A stretch of DNA of 64,000 bases from a bacterium BMS3Abin11 (GCA_002897635.1 BDTD01000011.1:76436-140435); one strand, 5' to 3'. Shown: positions 4,556 to 45,065, counted from the stretch's first letter. Notes: generated by a model not told the origin, from the sequence alone. Numbers and translations are program-made.

Positions 4556-5647
4556 ATGAGCAATAACCTGTTTAGTTCAATCACAGTGGGTGATCTCACA
4601 TTACCCAACCGGATGGTCATGGCACCGATGACGCGTAATCGTGCCAACCAGGACAACGCTCCGCACAGTCTGAATGTAAAATACTACCAGCAGCGCGCCA
4701 ACGCCGGTTTAATCATTACCGAAGGCTCGCAGGTCTCGATGGAGGGTGTGGGTTACCCCGGTACGCCAGGCATCTATAGCGATGTGCAAGTGGCCGGCTG
4801 GCGCGAAATTACCGATGCCGTACACGCCAAAGGTGGGCATATCTTTATACAGCTCTGGTATTGTGGACGTATCTCCCATCCAGATTTATTACCCGACAAC
4901 CAGACACCAGTCGCACCTTCCGCAATAAAACCGGAAGGTGATGCCGTTACCTTTGAAGGGATGAAACCTTTTATCACACCACGGGCACTCGAAACCGATG
5001 AGATTGCGGGCATTGTGGCACAGTACAAACATGCGGCGGAAATGGCCATAAAGGCGGGTTTTGATGGTGTTGAAGTGCATGGCGCAAATGGATATCTCAT
5101 CGATCAGTTCCTGCGAGATGGATCCAATCATCGCACTGACCGGTATGGTGGCAGCGTTGAAAACCGTATGCGCTTTCTCAATGAGGTACTCGATGCGGTA
5201 TGTGAAGTATGGCCTGACCAGCGCGTTGGGCTAAGACTGACACCGGAAAATAGTTTTAACAGCATGTCAGACTCCGATCCACAGACGCACTTTGCCTATT
5301 TTATTACACAGCTTAATTCACGCAAGCTGGCATATTTGCATATACTGGAAGGCGATATGATAAGCAAACAACGGCATGTCAACTACCGCAGCCTGCGTGA
5401 TAGCTTTGATGGTATTTACATAGCCAATAATGCATATGACAAAACGCGTGCTGAAGAAGGTATACGCAACGGAGATTGTGACATGGTTGCTTTCGGCATT
5501 CCTTTTCTGGCGAACCCAGATCTGGTATACCGTTATCAAAACGACCTGGCATTAAATGAAGCGGATCCGGACAGCTTTTATGGTGGTGATGAACACGGCT
5601 ACACAGACTACCCCTTTGCCGAGCACGTTAGCGCCGAATCGGCGTGA
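4556..5647 (+). CDS. nemA: NADH:flavin oxidoreductase, Old Yellow Enzyme family (N-ethylmaleimide reductase-like)
   Basis: OYE hallmarks are present: PLTRxR-like MAPMTRNRA, HGANGYLIDQF, RxDxYGGS. Length is 363 aa. Confidence 0.85.
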   Translation: MSNNLFSSITVGDLTLPNRMVMAPMTRNRANQDNAPHSLNVKYYQQRANAGLIITEGSQVSMEGVGYPGTPGIYSDVQVAGWREITDAVHAKGGHIFIQLWYCGRISHPDLLPDNQTPVAPSAIKPEGDAVTFEGMKPFITPRALETDEIAGIVAQYKHAAEMAIKAGFDGVEVHGANGYLIDQFLRDGSNHRTDRYGGSVENRMRFLNEVLDAVCEVWPDQRVGLRLTPENSFNSMSDSDPQTHFAYFITQLNSRKLAYLHILEGDMISKQRHVNYRSLRDSFDGIYIANNAYDKTRAEEGIRNGDCDMVAFGIPFLANPDLVYRYQNDLALNEADPDSFYGGDEHGYTDYPFAEHVSAESA

Positions 5648-5674: not shown

Positions 5675-6268
5675 ATGGGGAACAAAGGTGAAGCATTACG
5701 ACAACGGATTGTCGCATCTGCCGACCAGCTGTTTTACCAACAAGGATATGAAAACACTTCATTCAGCGACATAGCCGAAGACGTGGGGATCTCGCGTGGT
5801 AATTTCTATTATCACTTTAAAAGTAAAGATGAAATTTTAAACGCGGTTATAGACACCCGGCTCACCGACATCGAGCAGATGCTAGATGAATGGAGTAAAA
5901 AGTATACTGATCCCAGACAACGTATTATTATGTACATTGATATACTTACCAACCATCAGGACAATATTAAAAATCACGGCTGCCCCTTAGGCAGCCTGTG
6001 TACCGAGCTGGCAAAACAAAGTCACGTCATGTTGCAGGACGCGAACAAAATGTTTGCCATACAGCGTGACTGGTTAACAGTACAACTGAAAGAACTCGGC
6101 CTGGGTAAAAACGCCAAACAGGTTGCAATGCACTTATTGGCCCGCTCACAGGGCATCGCCACCATCACCAATGCCTTTGAAGATCAAGACTTTCTGCGTC
6201 AGGATGTAAAACGTTTAAAACAATGGCTAGATGAACAGATCCAGGGCCAGAACAAAAGTGGGAATTGA
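5675..6268 (+). CDS. TetR/AcrR family transcriptional regulator
   Basis: N-terminal HTH with GYENTSFSDIAEDVGISRGNFYYHFKSKDEIL. Confidence 0.85.
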   Translation: MGNKGEALRQRIVASADQLFYQQGYENTSFSDIAEDVGISRGNFYYHFKSKDEILNAVIDTRLTDIEQMLDEWSKKYTDPRQRIIMYIDILTNHQDNIKNHGCPLGSLCTELAKQSHVMLQDANKMFAIQRDWLTVQLKELGLGKNAKQVAMHLLARSQGIATITNAFEDQDFLRQDVKRLKQWLDEQIQGQNKSGN

Positions 6269-6345
6269 CCCTGTTATTCTCTCACAAAACGTCCTGGGTA
6301 CGGCAAAAACCTGAGACACTTTACCTGGAAACAGTTCGGTCTGAT

Positions 6346-6494
6346 AATAAACTACCCCGCAGCAAGCTGACGGGGTATTAAATGTAGGTGCGAATTCATT
6401 CGCACAGCGATGCCAATGTTTATGCACATTGTGCGAATGAATTCGCACCTACAGTTTTCGTGGCAAGCCACGGGGAATTATGCCCATAGGGATT
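6346..6494. mobile_element. 149 bp palindromic MITE-like repeat (copy A)
   Basis: Identical to the copy at 23081..23229. Contains a perfect 23 bp inverted repeat, GTAGGTGCGAATTCATTCGCACA / TGTGCGAATGAATTCGCACCTAC. Confidence 0.8.
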
Positions 6495-6540
6495 AACAGT
6501 ATTATCAGCGAAAAATGAAGGCACGAGCAGATACAAGCTG

Positions 6541-6700
6541 GTATATTATGGATCCGAACCTGAGTTGGTAGAAAAATAGAGGTGCCCTAATAGTATTCGT
6601 CATTTGCCTAATTAGGTCATAGATGATGAAGTTAATTTTTAGCGGCAGTCAACAGAACAAGAATTACGAAAGTGTTTGAATTTATAATACCCCACTGGCA
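6541..6700 (+). pseudogene. degenerate segmental duplicate of the 3' end of the glutaredoxin-like gene and its downstream flank
   Basis: About 80% identity to 2895..3070, with indels including a 12 bp insertion GAGGTGCCCTAA. There is no intact ORF. Confidence 0.6.
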
Positions 6701-34760: not shown

Positions 34761-35071
34761 CCTTGACCCGTTATCCTTCCCCCACTTATACCCGCCGCAT
34801 CTACGTCCGCAGCTTCCGTGCAAGTATCGGGCTTTGAAGATAATGGCCTTCTTACCCACTGCGACCGCCTAATATGCGATTTCTGTTCGTCAGGTCAGTG
34901 TTTTGCCTTCGGCTTTCTTCAGATTCCACCTCACGATAGACACCCTTGCCGTTTGGCTAATCGTTCCCCTTGCCGGGTCGATAGTGGACTTTCATCACCA
35001 AGTCATCCGACCGCCACCACACGTATCGGAACAGCACCGTAAGGCGCTACGCGCCATACTTGGCGCACCAA

Positions 35072-35098
35072 TAAAAAACCCGCCGAAGCGGGTTTAGC
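35072..35098 (-). terminator. rho-independent terminator of the PEP-CTERM gene
   Basis: On the minus strand, AAACCCGCTTCGGCGGGTTT hairpin followed by TTTTTTATT. Confidence 0.7.
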
Positions 35099-35103
35099 AG
35101 GAG

Positions 35104-35820
35104 CTATGCAGATTTCCTTCTTCGGGCAAATCCCAGACCAGCAAGGCCGATACCAAAGAGTGCGAGGGTGGCGGGTTCTGGAACAGCTGGAACAGGAGCA
35201 GTTAGCAGGTAATTCACTTGATTCTGATAAAGCTGAACTTCGTCCGCGTAGCTAAGTGTGTTACCCAAAAATCCGTTGATGATCGTCGACCCACCGTTAC
35301 CAATAACTATGCCAGCATTTCCATCTTCAAAACTTGCCGCAACTACACTTCCAGTGTCTGGAAAAAAGCTACGAGAGTAAATGCCATATGTTGGATTAGT
35401 AAGGCTTAATATAGATGAACTTAAACCAGACGAAAACAATGATGTCAAAGTCAAAGTTCCCTGATTGGTATTTGCCTGAATAACATCAAATGCAGCATCA
35501 GCTTCCGTGAGCCAGTGGCCAAATATTGCGGCATCACCACCAGCAACATAACTACTCAAAGCGGCAGATCCTGTTGAGTGGCCGCTAGCATCGAATTGGG
35601 TAACAACGAGGTCCCAAGAGGTAGCTAGCTGGGTTACAAAGTCAGTGTCATTATTCACCCTTGTTACACTGAGTCCCAAACCACTTAAAGCGTCACCCCA
35701 TGTGTCAATACCTGAATACTCATAGTCATCATATAGAAGTATGGCTGCGTTAGCCGTATTCAAACCCGCTAGTAGAACTACCAGGCCCAGCAGAAACTTT
35801 AATCTTATTCTCTTAAACAT
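35104..35820 (-). CDS. PEP-CTERM sorting-domain secreted protein (intact)
   Basis: N-terminal signal peptide and a C-terminal VPEPATLALFGIGLAGLGFARRRKSA motif (PEP, TM helix, basic tail). Confidence 0.75.
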   Translation of the reverse strand: MFKRIRLKFLLGLVVLLAGLNTANAAILLYDDYEYSGIDTWGDALSGLGLSVTRVNNDTDFVTQLATSWDLVVTQFDASGHSTGSAALSSYVAGGDAAIFGHWLTEADAAFDVIQANTNQGTLTLTSLFSSGLSSSILSLTNPTYGIYSRSFFPDTGSVVAASFEDGNAGIVIGNGGSTIINGFLGNTLSYADEVQLYQNQVNYLLTAPVPAVPEPATLALFGIGLAGLGFARRRKSA

Positions 35821-35885
35821 TCTTCTTTACTCCCTAAATTATCAGAACAGAATTTGTGTATATTATGTGTATGTGTAATATTGAA

Positions 35886-35901
35886 AGCAATATCCATGCC
35901 A
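35886..35901 (-). promoter_or_regulatory. sigma-54 (-24/-12) promoter TGGCAT-N5-TTGCT
   Basis: Minus-strand read is TGGCATGGATATTGCT, with canonical GG/GC spacing, about 65 bp upstream of the PEP-CTERM start. Confidence 0.6.
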
Positions 35902-36250
35902 CCATCTAATTTCAATGACTTATAACTACTTAATTTAAGAAGTGTAAAATATTCTGACAATTTTGTTGCGTGTATTACGGTAATCACTTTGCTAAGTAGG
36001 ACGACTGCTAGATGAGTTCAGCGATTCCTGAATGTCTCTTGTGGGTCGAAGGACTAAACCGCTCTCGCGGTAACCCTCCATCAAGTTAATCGCCATTCGA
36101 TAACATAAGGGCACCTCTATTTAGTGCACTTTATGTTCATTTATCCGGAATGATTCTCATTCCTTGTTTAAATCTATTTCACAGGGATATTTTGTCGAGA
36201 TAACCCCGGTTTTTTGCTCAATTCTTATCGTTTTCCACTTGTTTCTGTTT

Positions 36251-37696: not shown

Positions 37697-38467
37697 TCAG
37701 TCAACATTTTGGCTTAGAAGGTTCTTTTTGGTACCAAAATGGGCGGTGTAAGCACATGTCCGCTCCTTGATCTGGTACAGGTCCGCACTCTGGTGGACAG
37801 ATCGCCCTTTAGTCTTGATGCTCATTTGTTCTATTACGTTCTTGACAAAAGTCTGGCTACCCACTGCCACACTCTTACTCCAGATCTTCTGGCGCTGGCC
37901 ATCGTTCTTGCTCAGTGTTTCGTTAATCCATTTTTGATGGTGGACTTGCAGGCGTAATTCATCTTTCAGCCCCAGCAGCAATGCCAGGGCAACCCTGTCG
38001 ATGATGCGGTAGCGCTTTGGCGGCGACTGGATCTCGTGGTAACCACTGTGTTTCCACTCGCCGGGATGTGTGACTACACCCGCGCGCACCATATTCATGT
38101 CAACATAGATAAGACACCTTGCCAGGTATTCATCTGTATCCATGGCAGTAGCAAAATAACGATCTTCCCAGTAGGCCCCCTTTCGCTGTTTGCGCTGGTT
38201 GTATTCCTGTGCGGTACGCCCCGCAATGAGCTGCATGCTTCTGGAAATAACATTATCGCCCGTATCCATTATTACGAGCAGATGGATATGGTTCGACGTG
38301 ACAATATAGTTCAACACACAAAACCCATAGCGCTTCTTCGCCTGGAATAACCAGTAGCACCATCGTTCACGGTCACGGCTAAACTTCAGAAGAAATTCCC
38401 ATTTATGACAACGGCGTGTGATATGCCAGACGTGGCATGGTAGTGAGTGGCGATTGGCTCTTGGCAT
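37697..38467 (-). CDS. IS200-like Y1 (HuH) transposase, REP-associated tyrosine transposase-like
   Basis: HuH motif SNHIHLLV, downstream catalytic Tyr region. Family PF01797-like. Length is 256 aa. Confidence 0.75.
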   Translation of the reverse strand: MPRANRHSLPCHVWHITRRCHKWEFLLKFSRDRERWCYWLFQAKKRYGFCVLNYIVTSNHIHLLVIMDTGDNVISRSMQLIAGRTAQEYNQRKQRKGAYWEDRYFATAMDTDEYLARCLIYVDMNMVRAGVVTHPGEWKHSGYHEIQSPPKRYRIIDRVALALLLGLKDELRLQVHHQKWINETLSKNDGQRQKIWSKSVAVGSQTFVKNVIEQMSIKTKGRSVHQSADLYQIKERTCAYTAHFGTKKNLLSQNVD

Positions 38468-38589: not shown

Positions 38590-38885
38590 TCTTTATTTTA
38601 GTAGTGTGCTGGCGCACGGCTGGAGGTTGTCCTTTTGGGTGTGTTTTCTTTTTTTATTTGATTTCTTGAATTGTTATGCGCTTTTCGTCCTTCATGGACG
38701 AGTTCATTTCTTTTCTACGGACAAAAGAAACGAACCAAAGAAAAGCCGCCCCATTGTGTTGGCCTGCGGCTGCTCTGCGCGCTTCAGCCTGAACCGGGCG
38801 CGGTGAACTCGGGCTTCGCCCTCAGACATGCACCGCGCTTAACCGGCCCAGACTTCCAGTACTCGACAACCCAAAAGGGGATGAA
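38590..38885 (+). repeat. ~290 bp structured non-coding repeat, copy 2
   Basis: See copy 1. Lies immediately upstream of the Y1 transposase gene. Confidence 0.75.
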
Positions 38886-39313
38886 CATCAAAATCGGTGC
38901 TAAGGCCCTTACCAATGGTAATTTGAACAGCTGCTTCCGGCCAAGATAAGTTGTCAGGTGTGTACTAACTCCGTCCAGACTGACGCTGCTAAACCGGCAA
39001 CCCGGTGTTTACTCGATCCCTGCCGGGAAACCCCAAATCAAATCCCCATAGCACGATGTTCTACACCAGCCGCATGGCTTCCCCCCGCGGTTTCCTCCCT
39101 CGAGGTTTGTCAGACGCCTGCCCGTTGAGTGCGTGATGCGCTGACAGGCCGGTGGTTGGGGGCAGGCATCTTACAACCCTTAACAACTGCGGACGTTTGA
39201 TAACGCCTTGCACACCGGCAGCATAAAGCAGAGCGACGAGGAACGGCGCTTTTTGCCGTCCGAGTGGATTTGTCTTGTTATGTGTATTTATCAAGTGCAT
39301 TGGTGTTTTGTTA

Positions 39314-39691
39314 TTACTGACAAATTGCTGGACAATTTTTACCCCCGCCATATCCAGAATAGCAAGGGCCACCATAGCCGTCATAACATGACCCACCATA
39401 GCCACTGTACGCACCACCACCATATCCCTTATTAGCACCACCACCATACCCTTCATATTTAGGTCCTCCATATCCTTTATATTCAGGACCACCGTAGCCC
39501 TTATATTTGGGGCCTCCGTATCCTTTATACCTAGGGCCACCGTATCCTTTATATGCACCACCACCGTAACCTTTATACTCGGATCCACCGTATCCATCGT
39601 AACAAGGGCCGCCGTAGCCTGCATAACCTTTGCATTCTGCAAGCGCAGAATTGAAGTAAAAAATAGACAAAACGAGTATTAGCGTTTTCAT
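39314..39691 (-). CDS. secreted Gly/Tyr-rich protein with about 11 tandem octapeptide repeats (KGYGGPxY)
   Basis: Signal peptide MKTLILVLSIFYFNSALA, then GYGG(P/G)xYK repeats flanked by Cys-containing ends. Strong GGAGG RBS. The overlapping ORF 39061..39642 is an alternative frame of the same repeats. Confidence 0.6.
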   Translation of the reverse strand: MKTLILVLSIFYFNSALAECKGYAGYGGPCYDGYGGSEYKGYGGGAYKGYGGPRYKGYGGPKYKGYGGPEYKGYGGPKYEGYGGGANKGYGGGAYSGYGGSCYDGYGGPCYSGYGGGKNCPAICQ

Positions 39692-39734
39692 TTTAACTTA
39701 CCTCCAAGGCGCTCAATAATGGGCATAGTAGAAG

Positions 39735-40369
39735 TTATGCAGACTTATTTCTTCGAGCAAATACCAAACCAACAAGGCCAAGACCAAATAGTGCAAGGGT
39801 AACGGGTTCTGGAACAACTGTTACGTATGTACGAAATGAAGCATCTGCTCCGTAATTTCTAAAAAATTGCCATTGGCCAAAATTGACCCACAGCTCCCCA
39901 CCCAAATACTGATCACTATTATCATTTTGATAAATATAAGCACTATTACCAAAATTCCCTGTTACGCTTGTATTTATAAATATATAAAAAGTTGTTCTCC
40001 AAAAGAAACTGATATATCTGATAAATCAAAACCAATCCAAGTAAGCGGTTGCTGATTAATTAATGAACCTGTTTCATAAAATAAATAATTTGATTCAAAA
40101 TTATCTAGAGGGGCCCCATTCTCAGAACTTCTAGTTAATCCAATTCCATAAGACCTCGTTTCGCTTCCGTGCCCACTCAATTCAACTTCTAGTCTTGATA
40201 AATACCCATCAATGCCAACTGTAAATGATTGTGCTCCAGGAATCACAAGACCGACAGTAGTATTACCCTCAACTTCTTGATCAAGAATTGGCATGCTGAA
40301 TGAACTCAATGGAAAAAGAAGTATAGCCAAAATTGAACCTATTGATCTATAATTTTTAGTAAATTTCAA
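39735..40369 (-). pseudogene. PEP-CTERM protein gene with an internal frameshift
   Basis: The N-terminal 131 aa ORF (signal peptide) ends at 39974. The PEP-CTERM motif VVPEPVTLALFGLGLVGLVFARRNKSA* is encoded in another frame, which stays open across the junction. Confidence 0.55.
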
Positions 40370-40429
40370 TTTTTTCTCCCCTCTAAAAAGTTTGTTTTAA
40401 ACAACACAATAAATACTGTTTGAATAGTC

Positions 40430-40445
40430 AGCATAAATCATGCCA
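40430..40445 (-). promoter_or_regulatory. sigma-54 (-24/-12) promoter TGGCAT-N5-ATGCT
   Basis: Minus-strand TGGCATGATTTATGCT, about 60 bp upstream of the frameshifted PEP-CTERM gene. Confidence 0.55.
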
Positions 40446-40643
40446 CCAAATAACTTCAATGATTTATGGACACTCATTCTATGAAGTGTAAAGTATACTG
40501 ACAGTTCAGCGGTCCTTGAAGGTCTCAGTAGGGTCGATAGCGGCTGTCTGCGACTGAAGCCTGTGAAAAGCAGTTTCGTGCTGTATGAATTGGCGCTTAC
40601 CGGCCATATGTGGGCATTTAATATCAAGTTATGACAGGAACTC

Positions 40644-41438
40644 CTAACAATTTAATAACTTCAACAAGAAGGTCTTGGCTTTACAAATGAGTGATACGTT
40701 TGAATCAACATACTCTATTTCGACGCCTAATTCTTCAATCACCTGTATTATCAACGATGAATTGATACCCTTTCCTGTTGGTAAGAAATAACTAGTTTCT
40801 TCAATATAACTTTCACCATCCTCAATTTTCACAACCTGCGCTGGCATCAAATGCGTTTCCTGATTAGCAACCATAATTCCTGCAATATAAAAATTCTTGT
40901 TTTGAGTGTGTGCAATTACTGGCGCACCACTAGCACCCTGTAATGCAGGAAATGATGTGTTAAAGCACTGTGTTTTGACTTTTTCCGGATACTCGCTTTC
41001 GATATACCGCATTATGTTACCTTTGTGGGCGAATGGCTCAATTTTAATATGCTTGCCTCCTCCACGCTTTCTTTCAATTGATATTTGACTATATTCATAA
41101 CAGTAAACATCTGCATTAAGAGCAGGCTGCTGCTTAGCAAACTGTAATGGAATAGCACCTTCAATAGGTGCAATTTTGCAAATTGCAATATCATAGTCTT
41201 TGGATGCTACTATTTCCGAGATAGCCCAAATTTCAACACGCTTACCGGAGTTAAAAAGAAATGCATATTTAGCGAATTCATCCCGCTCACCAAGTTCAAA
41301 TATATGTTTGGCTGTGAGAATGTGTAGATTATTACTGGTTCCAATAAAGCAACCTGTTCCTAAAATCTCTTGTATAGGGTCATGTTCCGAGGCAATAACA
41401 ATCGGAACTATTGCTTTTTCTGGCTGAAAAGTATCCAT
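40644..41438 (-). CDS. trypsin-like (S1/chymotrypsin fold) serine peptidase, no signal peptide
   Basis: Catalytic triad context: LTAKH (His), DIAICKI (Asp), GASGAPV (GxSGxP Ser). Confidence 0.75.
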   Translation of the reverse strand: MDTFQPEKAIVPIVIASEHDPIQEILGTGCFIGTSNNLHILTAKHIFELGERDEFAKYAFLFNSGKRVEIWAISEIVASKDYDIAICKIAPIEGAIPLQFAKQQPALNADVYCYEYSQISIERKRGGGKHIKIEPFAHKGNIMRYIESEYPEKVKTQCFNTSFPALQGASGAPVIAHTQNKNFYIAGIMVANQETHLMPAQVVKIEDGESYIEETSYFLPTGKGINSSLIIQVIEELGVEIEYVDSNVSLICKAKTFLLKLLNC

Positions 41439-41454
41439 ATTATCTATTTATCGT

Positions 41455-41580
41455 GAATGATGATTTCGCTGCGTATTCTGCTGAACGTGAACACCTATTC
41501 TGGTGATCGTGAACACCTGGTTATTCCACGTATTGGCTTAGGTTCATTTTACCCTCAAGTGTTCACGATCAGTCAACAAT
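41455..41580. promoter_or_regulatory. promoter/operator region of the peptidase gene with three CGTGAACAC / GTGTTCACG sites
   Basis: On the minus strand, TTGACT...TAAAAT with an inverted GTGTTCACGATC half-site in the spacer, and two direct GTGAACACCT repeats between promoter and start. Confidence 0.45.
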
Positions 41581-42034
41581 TGACTGTAATTTCCGCATAG
41601 ATTCTCCTTTTAGTTTGATTCGATGCAAAACCAACGGGGTCACCCATTAGCCCGCCCCGGTCAATAGGCAAAGTTTAACTCTGCCGATAACAGCATAAAT
41701 CTTCATCTTCATCCATCAACGTTACGCACATCGCATCCGTTATGTCATCGTCTTTGGCATCAGATCGAAACGATCCGCACCAGTCACCCATCTGGATCAA
41801 GGCGAAACCCAAAACTTTTCAGTTCAGCCCCTGGTACCTCGGTACCCCACACAATCTTCGGTACCAAACCGTGTCCAAAAATTAATCACAGAATCGATGG
41901 TTCAGCCTTGGCTGTCCAGACCCAGTACAGCTCACGGTTTGGGCGAAACGTAAATATTGATGGTCGGCTGAGACGTCCAATCAGACTCTATGGTTGTACC
42001 AGACCCCGTTCTGGTTCATCTCAGCCGCCCAAAC

Positions 42035-43045
42035 TTAACCCGGAAACATCCGTCTGGCATCATAGGGTACCTGATGTTTAAGCATCATCCAGGTGGCTCT
42101 TGCCAATTTTCGGGCGACGGCCCGAATGGCAATAATGCCATTTGTCTTGGCCTTTTTTCGTTCATAGAAACGCTGTGCCAATGGCTCAAATCGTACTGCA
42201 AAATGTGCCGCTTCGGAGAAGGCCCAGGAAAGATATTTATTACCCGCTTTGGCATTGCCTTCACCTTTCTTTTTCCCATTACTGGTGCGTGTACTGTCCA
42301 CACAACGGCAATACGATGCAAAGTTGCCCGCACCCGCAAAGCGATGGATATCGCCGGTTTCCAGCATGATGGTCAGGCCGAGTATTTTTCCAATACCGGT
42401 GATTGTTTGTAGTATTTTAAAGACGTCTGTCAACTTCACCGCCTGATGTGCAGACGCCTCCAGAACATCAATTTCTCTCTGGGCGGCCTGATAAACGGCC
42501 AACCCCGCGCATACGGCCTGAAGTGTGTAACCATCCACGTGTGGCGGGACAAACTCAGGTTTGCGTAGTTTCTCCGAGCTAATTCGAATTCCCGTTGATC
42601 GCCATATCTGGCTTTGCACACTAATCAGTTGCGTACTGGCTGTTCTGACCAACGACAGCCTTCGTCGTAGCATGTCTCTAATCGCTCTTTGTTCTTTGGG
42701 GTAGATGTAGCCTGTGGGCAAGATACCCAGTCGCATGAGGTGCGCAAGGTGAAAGGCGTCTTGATGATCACCGCTGTATTTCAGGCCATCGTATTGCTTG
42801 ACTGCTGCCGTATTAACCAGCTGTAGATTGTAGCCCTGTTCTTGTAATCCATCGACTAACCAGTACCAATTGAAAGTCGATTCCACTGCGATCCCGCGCA
42901 AGGTCCTACGGTAAGGACGTAGTGTTTCGAGTGTCAGTGATAAATCATTGTTTAACCGCTTTTCAAACACTCGCTTGTCCTCTTCGTCGATGATAACCAC
43001 AACATGATTATTTGAATGTAAATCAATTCCGCAGTAATGTGACAT
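42035..43045 (-). CDS. IS110 family transposase (DEDD)
   Basis: N-terminal CGIDLH..., central and C-terminal IS110-family motifs (ITGIG...LETGDIHRF...GNKYLSWAF). Confidence 0.85.
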   Translation of the reverse strand: MSHYCGIDLHSNNHVVVIIDEEDKRVFEKRLNNDLSLTLETLRPYRRTLRGIAVESTFNWYWLVDGLQEQGYNLQLVNTAAVKQYDGLKYSGDHQDAFHLAHLMRLGILPTGYIYPKEQRAIRDMLRRRLSLVRTASTQLISVQSQIWRSTGIRISSEKLRKPEFVPPHVDGYTLQAVCAGLAVYQAAQREIDVLEASAHQAVKLTDVFKILQTITGIGKILGLTIMLETGDIHRFAGAGNFASYCRCVDSTRTSNGKKKGEGNAKAGNKYLSWAFSEAAHFAVRFEPLAQRFYERKKAKTNGIIAIRAVARKLARATWMMLKHQVPYDARRMFPG

Positions 43046-43342
43046 GTCAGTCTCCTCTTCGTTTGTGAGCAGCCAGTTTAACAACTGGCTGCGAGGAGGC
43101 TGGCTAGAGGATTATCAGACTCGATTGATCATGAGGAATTAGAATCAATTCGTAATGCCACCAATAATTCCTGGGTGTCTGGTAATGATTATTTCAAAAA
43201 AGAAATTGAACGTTTACTTAATCGTAGAACGGGGCAACTTCCCACTGGTGGTGACAGACGAAGTGAAAAATTTAAGAATCGTCATTGATTCGTTTTCTAT
43301 CGAGTCTGACCCCGTTGGTTTGGACCCCGTTGGTTTGGAGTG

Positions 43343-43873
43343 TTATATTACTTCCCAAGCCTTCAACTCAACCTCAATAGCATTGATGTACTTTAAACAA
43401 TCGTTTTTCTCGACAAGAATTGCACCATGAGCTAGGTCATTTCGAGCCTCTCGACCCTTATCAAGTGTATTGTAATCCTGCCATGTGAGAGTAATTTTTG
43501 AAACTTTCATCATGTAACCCAACTTATCACTTTTCTTGGCAATAACTTCTTCATTTTGTAGTTGGGATAACACCTGACCCAGAACAGAATAGGCGAGAAT
43601 AAGTAGGAGATTATATGACTCTTCAGGACGATCCTCATACATAATCATGCCACCTGCTAAATATAGTTTTGAACTTATCCTACTCTCAAGTTCACGAACC
43701 ACTGCCCAATCTTGGCCAATAGTTCTCTTTATTTTCTTATCTCTTATCACGAATCGTAGTAGGCGTTTAATAACGGGCTTAGGAGGAGCTATGAGGACTT
43801 CTTTCTTCGGGCAAATCCCAGAGACCAGCAAGGCCAATGCCGAATAGTGCAAGGGTCGCGGGTTCGGGGACAA
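43343..43873 (-). CDS. hypothetical protein, possible HEPN-like (Rx4H) domain. Start uncertain.
   Basis: C-terminal region has an R-N-D-L-A-H (Rx4H) motif. The track ORF overlaps the upstream PEP-CTERM gene by 95 nt, so the true start is probably internal. Confidence 0.35.
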   Translation of the reverse strand: MSPNPRPLHYSALALLVSGICPKKEVLIAPPKPVIKRLLRFVIRDKKIKRTIGQDWAVVRELESRISSKLYLAGGMIMYEDRPEESYNLLLILAYSVLGQVLSQLQNEEVIAKKSDKLGYMMKVSKITLTWQDYNTLDKGREARNDLAHGAILVEKNDCLKYINAIEVELKAWEVI

Positions 43874-44474
43874 CCTCTATACTATCAATTGTGCCACTGA
43901 GTTGAAGACTGTTCCTAAAAGAACCAAACAACAATCTGTATGAATACAGGGAAGCATCAAAAGGAACAAAATCTGGAAGGCCTATCCCGTCTAGCTCATC
44001 AGAACCCAATACCGCAGCAAAAGCCGTGGTCACCCAAATATCATCTAAGCTGCCCGTGCTTGGTGAAAAACCACCAAACTTCACAACACTATAGGCCTCT
44101 TCGCGATAGAAGGGAGATGTCGGTAGTACATCACGAACTTGAATATACCCCAGACTTAGACTCGACCATGAAAAATTCCCCACCGATAAATCAAACTCAT
44201 TTACCACATAATAGCGACCATAAGCCAAATTGTCAGGAAGCACATCCACTGGATTCGTTGTGTCATAAGTATATCTGCCAAATATTCTGTCTCATAAGCT
44301 GAAGCTAGATTCTAGGCCAGACTCTATAAATGATGCTGCGCCCCTGAACTCTACTGCTATCAGATTGGCCATGCTAGGAGTAGACAGTATCAGGGCAAAT
44401 AAGCCCGCGATATTCTGAGGCCGAAGATGCCCTATAGCTAATTTTTTAATTATAATTGTATTCCAATATTTCAT
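43779..44474 (-). pseudogene. PEP-CTERM protein gene with at least two frameshifts
   Basis: Signal-peptide exon (44292..44474) is out of frame with the body (43779..44249). The C-terminal VVPEPATLALFGIGLAGL is followed by a CT insertion that replaces GFARRKKSS* with WDLPEERSPHSSS*. Confidence 0.55.
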
Positions 44475-44580
44475 TATGGAGCCTCTGATTATGGAGCCTC
44501 TGATTAATAATTCTTTGTATCTTAGACCGTGTCTTTACTATTGAGTGAGCCTGAACAGTGGCCTTCCGACTAATACAAAA

Positions 44581-44595
44581 GCAACATCCATGCCA
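44581..44595 (-). promoter_or_regulatory. sigma-54 (-24/-12) promoter TGGCAT-N5-TTGC
   Basis: Minus-strand TGGCATGGATGTTGC, about 105 bp upstream of the signal-peptide fragment. Confidence 0.55.
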
Positions 44596-44759
44596 CTATG
44601 CAATTACAATGACTTACGACACATAATGCTAAGTAGTAATACTTTGTCCGTAAAATATTCTGACACTTTTATTGAATATACTACGAAGCCGATCAATTTG
44701 CGCTGTTAGATGAGTTCAGCGATTCCTAGAAGTCTCTTGTGGGTCGACAGCAGTCAATT

Positions 44760-45065
44760 CAGGACACCGGTTTTGACTTCCTTTCCCCTTTTGTGTCGTC
44801 GAGCACTGGAAGGCTGGGCCGGATAAGCGCGGTGCCTGTCTGAGGGCGAAGCCCGAGTTCACCGTGCCCGGTCCAGACTGAAGCGCGCAGAGCAGCCGTA
44901 GGCCAACACATCGGGGCGGCTTTTCTTTGGTTCCGTTTCTTTTGTCCGTAGAAAAGAAATGAACTCGTCCATGAAGGACGAAAAACGAGCATTAATTCAA
45001 GTTGAGAACAAAAAAGTACTCAGAAAGCTAAGAGAAAACCCAGGCCGTGCGCCAGCACAAAAGAA
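44760..45065 (-). repeat. ~290 bp structured non-coding repeat, copy 3 (inverted)
   Basis: Its reverse complement aligns with copies 1 and 2. It abuts the pmbA stop. Confidence 0.75.

Follow-up and report, generated by a model that had tools for sequence, protein, structure and literature searches.

What is a lone trypsin-like serine peptidase doing inside a bacterial cell, and what might the repeats in front of its gene be for? The question is raised by a 64,000-nucleotide (nt) stretch of DNA from 'bacterium BMS3Abin11' (GCA_002897635.1, BDTD01000011.1:76436-140435), which is called the window here at its full length. A gene for a 264-amino-acid (aa) peptidase lies on its minus strand, preceded by three copies of a short repeat that overlap a candidate promoter. 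An initial annotation had read the product as a trypsin-like peptidase with an intact catalytic triad and with neither a signal peptide nor a partner domain, and had proposed tight regulation by a repressor. The description of the enzyme held up in every part, and the repeats turned out to be real and to recur in front of a distant homolog; a repressor that occludes the promoter would be one way to read them.

The peptidase was identified by its sequence, its predicted fold and its pattern of selection. Pfam Trypsin_2 (PF13365) matches residues 27-177 with 38.9 bits against a curated cut-off of 27.6 (E=1.8e-9), and the catalytic residues come in the order His45/Asp83/Ser170. In an alignment of 39 homologs D83 and S170 are invariant and H45 is kept in at least 90%; T42, A43, K139, G140, S162, P164, A165, G168 and P173 are invariant as well. 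Ser170 sits in a GASGAP loop within the wider motif FPALQGASGAP, and the family has motifs of its own, namely HKGN (138-141), ANxERHLLPAQ (also written ANxExHLxPAQ) and EExxYFLPxG. AlphaFold2, given the 39-homolog alignment, predicted an all-beta double beta-barrel with a predicted local distance difference test score (pLDDT) of 90.5 and a predicted template modelling score (pTM) of 0.85. The family also has an extra beta-hairpin at residues 201-217. Foldseek matched the model to elastase, urokinase (uPA) and DegS (E ~1e-8) and to Rv3671c, all with probability 1.0, matches which are at superfamily level only (template modelling score ~0.5-0.6, 11-19% identity). The best sequence-profile matches in the PDB were SplD, SplA and SplB (E ~1e-4) and HtrA1 (~2e-3), and BFVD returned generic viral 3C-like or trypsin-like matches only.

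No signal peptide or transmembrane segment was found in the protein, whose N-terminus is polar and whose highest 19-residue Kyte-Doolittle mean is 1.09, and a Pfam scan showed no PDZ or other second domain. The ratio of nonsynonymous to synonymous substitution rates (dN/dS) is 0.13 against a 75%-identical relative and 0.11 against a 72%-identical one, and the gene is under purifying selection. In the database the protein is matched exactly by BMS3Abin11_00930, a hypothetical protein of 'bacterium BMS3Abin11', and the sequence of the locus is identical across 5 independent assemblies. The low dN/dS, the intact triad and the lack of a hydrophobic N-terminus together mean, as far as sequence can tell, that this is a real, intact and selected S1-type peptidase that is cytoplasmic.

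The family is made up of single-domain proteins. A word-indexed search gave 111 homologs; with an exhaustive profile search the count was 153 representative clusters at E<=1e-30 and rose to 528 at E<=1e-10. Among the best ~150 representatives, almost all members are 225-265 aa long (typically ~245) and are covered by the protease profile from end to end; the few longer ones are start-codon artefacts or carry a SEC-C/zinc-ribbon tail. None of the ~150 representative clusters has a sensor domain or a sensor fusion. The family was found at 25 loci among 185,579 species-representative genomes, spread over at least eight phyla or classes: the hosts are Nitrospinaceae, Gamma-, Alpha- and Deltaproteobacteria, Acidobacteriota, Actinomycetes, Coriobacteriia, Dehalococcoidia and one clostridial metagenome-assembled genome (MAG). 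Metagenomes gave 80 further loci. There was no match in 50,697 phage records and a single carrier among 72,556 plasmids, and no PHROG or NCBIfam model matches the protein. The family appears to be rare and horizontally scattered, with no characterised member and no obligatory partner. The protease is best filed as an uncharacterised member of a known enzyme class, the S1/PA peptidases, and what is defined here is an S1-like family of ~150 clusters, uncharacterised and always stand-alone, with distinctive invariant motifs.

Upstream of the gene, the motif CGTGAACAC/GTGTTCACG occurs exactly three times in the window, against 0.41 occurrences expected, and all three copies fall within 82 bp (41486-41567). 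On the gene strand the order is a candidate -35 box, TTGACT, a 19-nt spacer holding the inverted copy (O1), a candidate -10 box, TAAAAT, the two direct copies (O2, then O3) and the ATG at 41438, so that one inverted copy inside the promoter spacer and two direct copies are present as first described. O2 and O3 form a tandem of 22-nt units that are 91% identical, and the degenerate 22-mer pattern of the array is expected to have 0 matches by chance. An inverted 16-nt repeat (41504-41519 and 41556-41571) pairs the left part of O2 with O1, its arms complementary at 15 of 16 positions and 36 nt apart. O2 lies at about +24..+32 from the inferred transcription start, and the arrangement as a whole is a GTGTTCACGATCAC-type array. 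An automatic promoter scan missed TTGACT-N19-TAAAAT because it allowed only spacers of 16-18 nt.

The layout resembles that of multi-operator promoters such as lambda OR/OL, or the iteron-type direct repeats with an inverted repeat at rep promoters. These likewise have multiple direct and inverted copies, and in the array too the sites are roughly an integral number of helical turns apart and one of them overlaps the core promoter. Unlike lambda OR/OL, the window array is a putative operator to which no cognate regulator is assigned, and its sequence matches no recognised operator. A look by eye for SoxR, LexA and attC sites in the array found one half of a SoxR-like box only, no LexA-type palindrome and no attC consensus. 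Viral contigs held no arrays; they held 62 isolated single matches to the 16-mer, which we estimate to be roughly chance for the size of the collection. An RNA element in the leader or in the insertion sequence (IS) upstream was also considered and rejected: Rfam gave no matches, and the leader folds well (z=-3.06), yet O1 lies upstream of the inferred start. Behind a strong Shine-Dalgarno sequence (AAAGGAG), a 9-codon mini open reading frame (ORF; MRKLQSIVD, 41569-41598, minus strand) runs into the -35/O1 region and stops there; it probably arose by chance.

The array recurs at one other locus of the family, L030, in a gammaproteobacterial MAG (JBNLGQ01) whose family member, at 6004-6693, is 29% identical to the window protease. 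There, positions 5121-5193 read TCGTGAACAC, 21 nt, GTGTTCACGATCACACCAGAAT, TG, CTGTTCATGATCAAGCAGAGAAT, which is the same inverted-plus-two-direct arrangement as in the window, upstream of the protease homolog and co-oriented with it. The 22-nt unit is ~90% identical between the two loci although the proteases have diverged so far. The window has 42 nt between O1 and O2, whereas L030 has 21 nt; the two gaps differ by two helical turns, so the phase is the same, as would be expected if a protein bound cooperatively to sites that share one face of the helix. The shared three-site architecture favours a putative protein-binding array, and the phasing of the gap is the best evidence that the array may be a functional protein-binding unit. 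An array conserved in three sites would also offer a direct way to find the regulator and the signal it answers to.

The reading we propose, and to which we give about an even chance, is that of an active cytoplasmic serine endopeptidase whose promoter is occluded by a trans-acting protein at O1 and stabilised in that state through O2 and O3. The gene would have a sigma-70-type promoter to itself, with a spacer that is over-long at 19 nt. The three GTGTTCACG-centred sites would most likely be bound by a DNA-binding protein encoded in trans: O1 lies within the spacer, and the 22-nt tandem of O2 and O3 would fall early in the transcribed region. A bound O1 would block RNA polymerase, and cooperative binding, or looping from O1 to O2 and O3, would make repression tighter. 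A potentially harmful intracellular protease would then be silent until a signal removes the regulator. The array, its overlap with the candidate promoter and its recurrence in L030 stand as observations and fit the earlier proposal of a regulator; regulator binding, promoter use, repression, toxicity and the biological trigger are parts that we infer.

Several observations weigh against promoter occlusion. A 19-nt spacer is poor for sigma-70, the Shine-Dalgarno sequence of the protease gene is weak, and read-through from the co-oriented transposase gene of the IS110 element upstream could also drive expression. No regulator gene adjoins the array in the window or in L030. The closest relatives (L121-L124, the 75% and 72% identity cases included) lack it upstream of their protease genes, as do almost all of the other protease loci, of which ~110 were fetched; L030 is the sole exception. 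In L030 the array is ~810 bp away from the protease gene, with a terminator-like palindrome in between, and a direct regulatory link at that locus is therefore doubtful. Loss of an ancestral stop has lengthened the window protein by 19 aa over its relatives, which end in ...EYVE-stop (TAA/TGA) where the window has TCA (40701-40703). This loss could mean relaxed constraint on the protease. The placement of both arrays, finally, also fits the end of a mobile element. The window array lies within ~290 bp of non-IS DNA of the point where synteny with relatives ends, and the L030 array sits exactly at a drop in GC content from ~0.44-0.46 to ~0.34-0.40, at the edge of a low-GC stretch and beside housekeeping genes.

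The array could accordingly be read as a recombinase- or transposase-binding end, an attachment-site (att) arm or a remnant resembling a miniature inverted-repeat transposable element (MITE), left by the small mobile element that delivered the low-GC protease module, which we consider unlikely. Transposon ends and integrase arm sites typically have several sites of 20-22 bp in direct and inverted orientation. The close match of the 22-nt unit in two genomes whose proteases are so different looks as if the unit had been shared recently, and its absence at the closest protease relatives points the same way. Yet neither the window nor L030 yielded a second, inverted array or a matching end, no integrase or matching transposase adjoins, and the ends of IS110 map elsewhere. 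The 68-bp palindromic unit is not flanked by a target-site duplication, and the lack of an attC consensus by eye speaks against this reading too. The phase-preserving 21-nt difference is better explained by cooperative protein binding, which would hold for a recombinase as well.

We are similarly doubtful that the protease is a single-gene abortive-infection or defence effector, one that would lie latent and cut essential host or phage proteins on infection. This would be compatible with promoter occlusion and would add a claim to it. Its model is Lit, from the e14 prophage of E. coli, a single-gene abortive-infection zinc metalloprotease that is triggered by the T4 Gol peptide bound to EF-Tu. 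Lit and the window protease are both partner-less cytoplasmic proteases in flexible genome regions, but the analogy is conceptual only, with no relationship in sequence or fold. The best PADLOC profile matches of the protease are the protease domains of defence proteins: LmuA (2.5e-15), the retron type XI RT-protease (RT-Protease_XI, 6.6e-7) and Avs1b (2.7e-3). The rare and patchy distribution also suits a defence gene, and the apparent tight regulation would fit a toxic product. The PADLOC matches, however, are by their profiles domain-level only, and none of the PADLOC single-gene candidates matches the protease. The lack of sensor domains, the absence from phage records and the near absence from plasmids count against a defence effector as well.

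Gene neighbourhoods bear on the initial annotation's proposal that the protease belongs to an anti-phage or abortive-infection module. ORFs were called at all protease loci, and the nearest neighbour on each side was collected and clustered by BLAST. The 146 non-redundant flanking ORFs fell into 131 clusters, and neither this clustering nor the Pfam and PADLOC scans of the neighbours found a conserved neighbour or partner gene. Close neighbours on the same strand include housekeeping genes (RecO three times, RtcB two to three times, homoserine dehydrogenase, lumazine synthase, PAPS reductase, glyoxalase, DinB and an enolase-superfamily enzyme) and conflict-type genes (a CAP12/Pycsar-type TIR (PDC-S35), HEPN_RiboL-PSP at 1e-21, HEPN, AbiJ-like, PIN, MqsA-like and a DSP-phosphatase toxin domain). 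Within 3 kb, at 24 loci, the conflict or mobile genes were 3 integrases, 2 HTH-M78 genes, a CBASS-like cyclase with a 2TM effector, PDC-M41 and PDC-M30 candidates and RmrA; the housekeeping genes were chorismate synthase, a tRNA synthetase, GTP cyclohydrolase and DNA polymerase III delta'. A minority of loci have a defence, toxin-antitoxin or integrase gene close to the protease; many have housekeeping genes there, and these are often the tightly linked ones.

Some loci do lie in obvious conflict islands. In L005 (7206-8726, 9013-10549) the CAP12/Pycsar-type TIR (PDC-S35) gene is 12 bp upstream of the protease homolog, and SLATT_4 and SMODS genes adjoin. L001 has HipA, AbiEii, NYN and HTH-M78 genes, and in L030 (6004-8399) a 518-aa TIR plus Gly-rich protein is encoded 149 bp downstream of the protease homolog. 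Other loci carry HEPN_RiboL-PSP, HEPN, AbiJ-like, PIN, ParE or integrase genes. No effector candidate for the protease was found in the window, and no metallo-beta-lactamase (MBL), Pepco/Trypco, EACC1, alpha/beta-hydrolase, gasdermin or sensor gene was found beside the protease among the top 25 families listed for each Pfam or PADLOC neighbour scan. A place for the window protease in an anti-phage or abortive-infection module is at most weakly supported. The homologs are neither in conserved housekeeping contexts nor equipped with secretion signals. These loci suggest an accessory gene that is self-sufficient, belongs to the flexible genome and at times lies in conflict islands.

Two patterns in the neighbourhoods were followed up and dropped. 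The RecO, RtcB and DinB neighbours had prompted the idea of a FAM111-type protease for DNA-protein crosslinks, but a paper on the subject gave no support for a bacterial link. IS110-type transposases near the protease in L124, L007 and L008 might have meant recurrent hitch-hiking; they are only 20-24% identical, which indicates coincidence in IS-rich DNA. In two loci (L019 2152-10678 and L026 2422-9768) the protease is inside a long same-strand array of small ORFs (110-225 aa) spaced ~70-130 bp apart, reminiscent of cassette or immunity-gene arrays, and in L026 paralogous ORFs lie on both sides of it.

Comparison with known proteases places the family apart from two groups. With the staphylococcal Spl/V8 (S1B) and HtrA/DegS (S1C) proteases it has in common the double beta-barrel, the His-Asp-Ser order and the G-x-S-G-x-P loop. 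Spl/V8 and HtrA/DegS work outside the cytoplasm, secreted or in the periplasm, and have signal peptides, to which HtrA adds PDZ domains; this family is cytoplasmic and single-domain and differs in its GASGAP loop, its unique motifs HKGN, ANxERHLLPAQ and EExxYFLPxG and its hairpin. With defence proteases (the protease-LmuA of Lamassu, the retron type XI RT-protease, Avs1/Avs2 and trypsin-HamA) it shares an intracellular trypsin-like fold and the logic of a latent, dangerous intracellular protease (PMC12642450, PMC12799240). The defence proteases activate MBL nucleases, Pepco, EACC1 or alpha/beta-hydrolases. Each is paired with a specific, co-evolving effector gene, which can be an MBL nuclease, an alpha/beta-hydrolase, Pepco/Trypco, EACC1 or a gasdermin, and most are fused to a sensor (PMC12642450, PMC12799240); this family, at ~245 aa and without fusions, has neither feature, which is a further point against a defence effector. 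The protease thus fits neither the described protease-effector modules nor the secreted S1 proteases.

A wider version of the same idea, which seems to us quite improbable, is that the family as a whole is one of conflict proteases without sensors, each encoded by a single gene and caged by a three-site operator, which is kept across members only 29% identical. Derepression, for example on attack by a phage or mobile element, would lead to cell death or arrest or to destruction of an invader protein, and minimal cassettes of ~1 kb would land beside toxin, TIR, HEPN or housekeeping genes alike. If true, such an autonomous caged effector would add a minimal one-gene design to protease-based bacterial immunity. 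Least probable of all is that the gene is a functionless, decaying passenger stranded by IS activity, with repeats that arose when slippage duplicated one arm of a palindrome formed by chance: the lost stop, the poor ribosome-binding site, IS110 only 65 bp from the promoter and surroundings with several IS elements and with PEP-CTERM cassettes that are split or degraded would fit, but the frame is uninterrupted, all of the invariant residues are kept, dN/dS is low, the five assemblies agree and the recurrence in L030 argues against a chance array.

Table 1. Features at and around the protease gene, in positions counted from the first letter of the window.
Feature	Position	Strand	Basis or remark
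S1/PA-clan (Trypsin_2) serine peptidase gene, stand-alone, cytoplasmic, 264 aa	40644..41438	-	ORF, Pfam, alignment, AlphaFold2, dN/dS
C-terminal read-through extension, 19 aa	40644..40703	-	homolog alignment; modelled at low confidence
Site O3, second 22-nt tandem unit GGTGTTCACGTTCAGCAGAATA	41474..41495	-	motif count, repeat search, pattern expectation
Site O2, 22-nt unit GGTGTTCACGATCACCAGAATA	41496..41517	-	motif count, repeat search, pattern expectation
Candidate -10 TAAAAT, 19-nt spacer	41546..41551 (41551->41546)	-	read from sequence
Site O1, inverted copy TGATCGTGAACACTTG, fills promoter spacer	41556..41571	-	motif count and repeat search
Candidate -35 TTGACT	41571..41576 (41576->41571)	-	read from sequence
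IS110-family element, 1,484 bp	41636..43119	-	ends from aligned independent 87%-identical copy L188
IS110 transposase	42035..43045	-	Pfam, NCBIfam
Conserved 135-aa ORF	~43343..43750	-	gene callers and five homologs
PEP-CTERM cassettes	35089-36049, 39720-40537, 43774-44747	-	conserved 5' leader and 3' end
~216-nt repeat, 86-93% identity	33450-33665, 38665-38890; 44784-45001	direct; inverted	brackets cassette region
Group II intron fragment, Rfam group II intron D1-D4-3 (RF02001), 139.5 bits, E=2e-29	34767-34940	-	
IS5/DDE_Tnp_1-type transposase, 396 aa	36251-37441	-	between first and second PEP-CTERM cassettes
IS200-like Y1 transposase, 256 aa, possibly REP-associated	37697-38467	-	between first and second PEP-CTERM cassettes

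The elements around the protease gene were then delimited, which corrected the local annotation at the IS110 borders, at the 135-aa ORF linked to a PEP-CTERM gene and at the lost stop codon. The IS110 element is inserted 65 bp upstream of O1, points the same way as the protease gene and is not part of the protease unit. Its DEDD transposase matches DEDD_Tnp_IS110 and Transposase_20 in Pfam (4.2e-16 and 1.8e-17) and NF033542 in NCBIfam (4.7e-52). Metagenomes hold 7,971 relatives at E<=1e-50, of which the best 120 are 83-94% identical. Downstream of the transposase, ~400 nt of the element (41636-42034, minus strand) are non-coding and match no Rfam family; IS1111-type elements encode a bridge RNA downstream of the transposase.

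The 15-nt tandem repeat that had been noticed beyond the IS110 is real, but it lies at 43308-43337 rather than at 43301-43335 and has a third, inverted copy. The 15-mer is GACCCCGTTGGTTTG. Its tandem pair (43308-43322 and 43323-43337) sits ~190 bp outside the 5' end of IS110, directly after the stop of the 135-aa ORF, and the inverted copy (41628-41642) is half IS110 3' terminus (TGACCCC, which is also in L188) and half flank. Since IS110 ends at 41636 and 43119, the 15-mers are not its terminal repeats, and these same L188-based ends rule out an insertion in the middle of a palindromic terminator or repetitive extragenic palindrome (REP) made of 15-mers. The 15-mers might have been left by earlier IS110 events or mark a target that the element prefers.

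The neighbouring ORF had been called HEPN-like and placed at 43343..43873. Gene callers and homologs agree on the shorter product in Table 1, and the longer frame overlaps the 3' end of a PEP-CTERM gene. The Rx4H motif behind the HEPN suggestion holds, as R103-x4-H108 is invariant in 5 homologs, and the ORF is a possible HEPN protein. HEPN_RiboL-PSP in Pfam stays below its cut-off of 28.4 at 14.5 bits (E=0.035), the AlphaFold2 model is poor (pLDDT 58) with a best Foldseek E of 0.39, and the PDB gave no sequence match. Two relatives of the ORF (L119 833-1240 and L120 778-1185) each lie 38 bp after a PEP-CTERM gene and are followed by a canonical intrinsic terminator and unrelated DNA, not by a protease; homology with the window stops right after the stop codon. 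The 38-bp distance holds for the window ORF as well. This linkage and the ORF's own terminator mean that it is not the protease's partner, and they equally rule out an ancestral operon of 'HEPN' ORF and protease that was split by IS110. The last ~15 residues of the ORF (INAIEVELKAWEVI) are almost invariant even at 45% overall identity, which suggests a constrained interaction or an overlapping element.

The mobile island around the protease consists mainly of three paralogous PEP-CTERM cassettes and borders pmbA/tldD on one side, and the protease lies in a ~1.1-kb low-GC module between cassettes, in an IS-rich stretch. Conserved leaders are found for example at 35884-36049, 40428-40537 and 44578-44747. 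The middle PEP-CTERM copy appears to be split into ORFs of 131 aa and 56 aa and may be a pseudogene. The ~216-nt repeat has no match in Rfam and may be a MITE or an intron fragment. A 125-aa ORF (39314-39691, minus strand) has no match in Pfam or PHROG; with a signal-peptide-like N-terminus and about nine 24-nt (8-aa) repeats, YKGYGGP(K/E), it apparently encodes a secreted Gly/Tyr-rich repeat protein.

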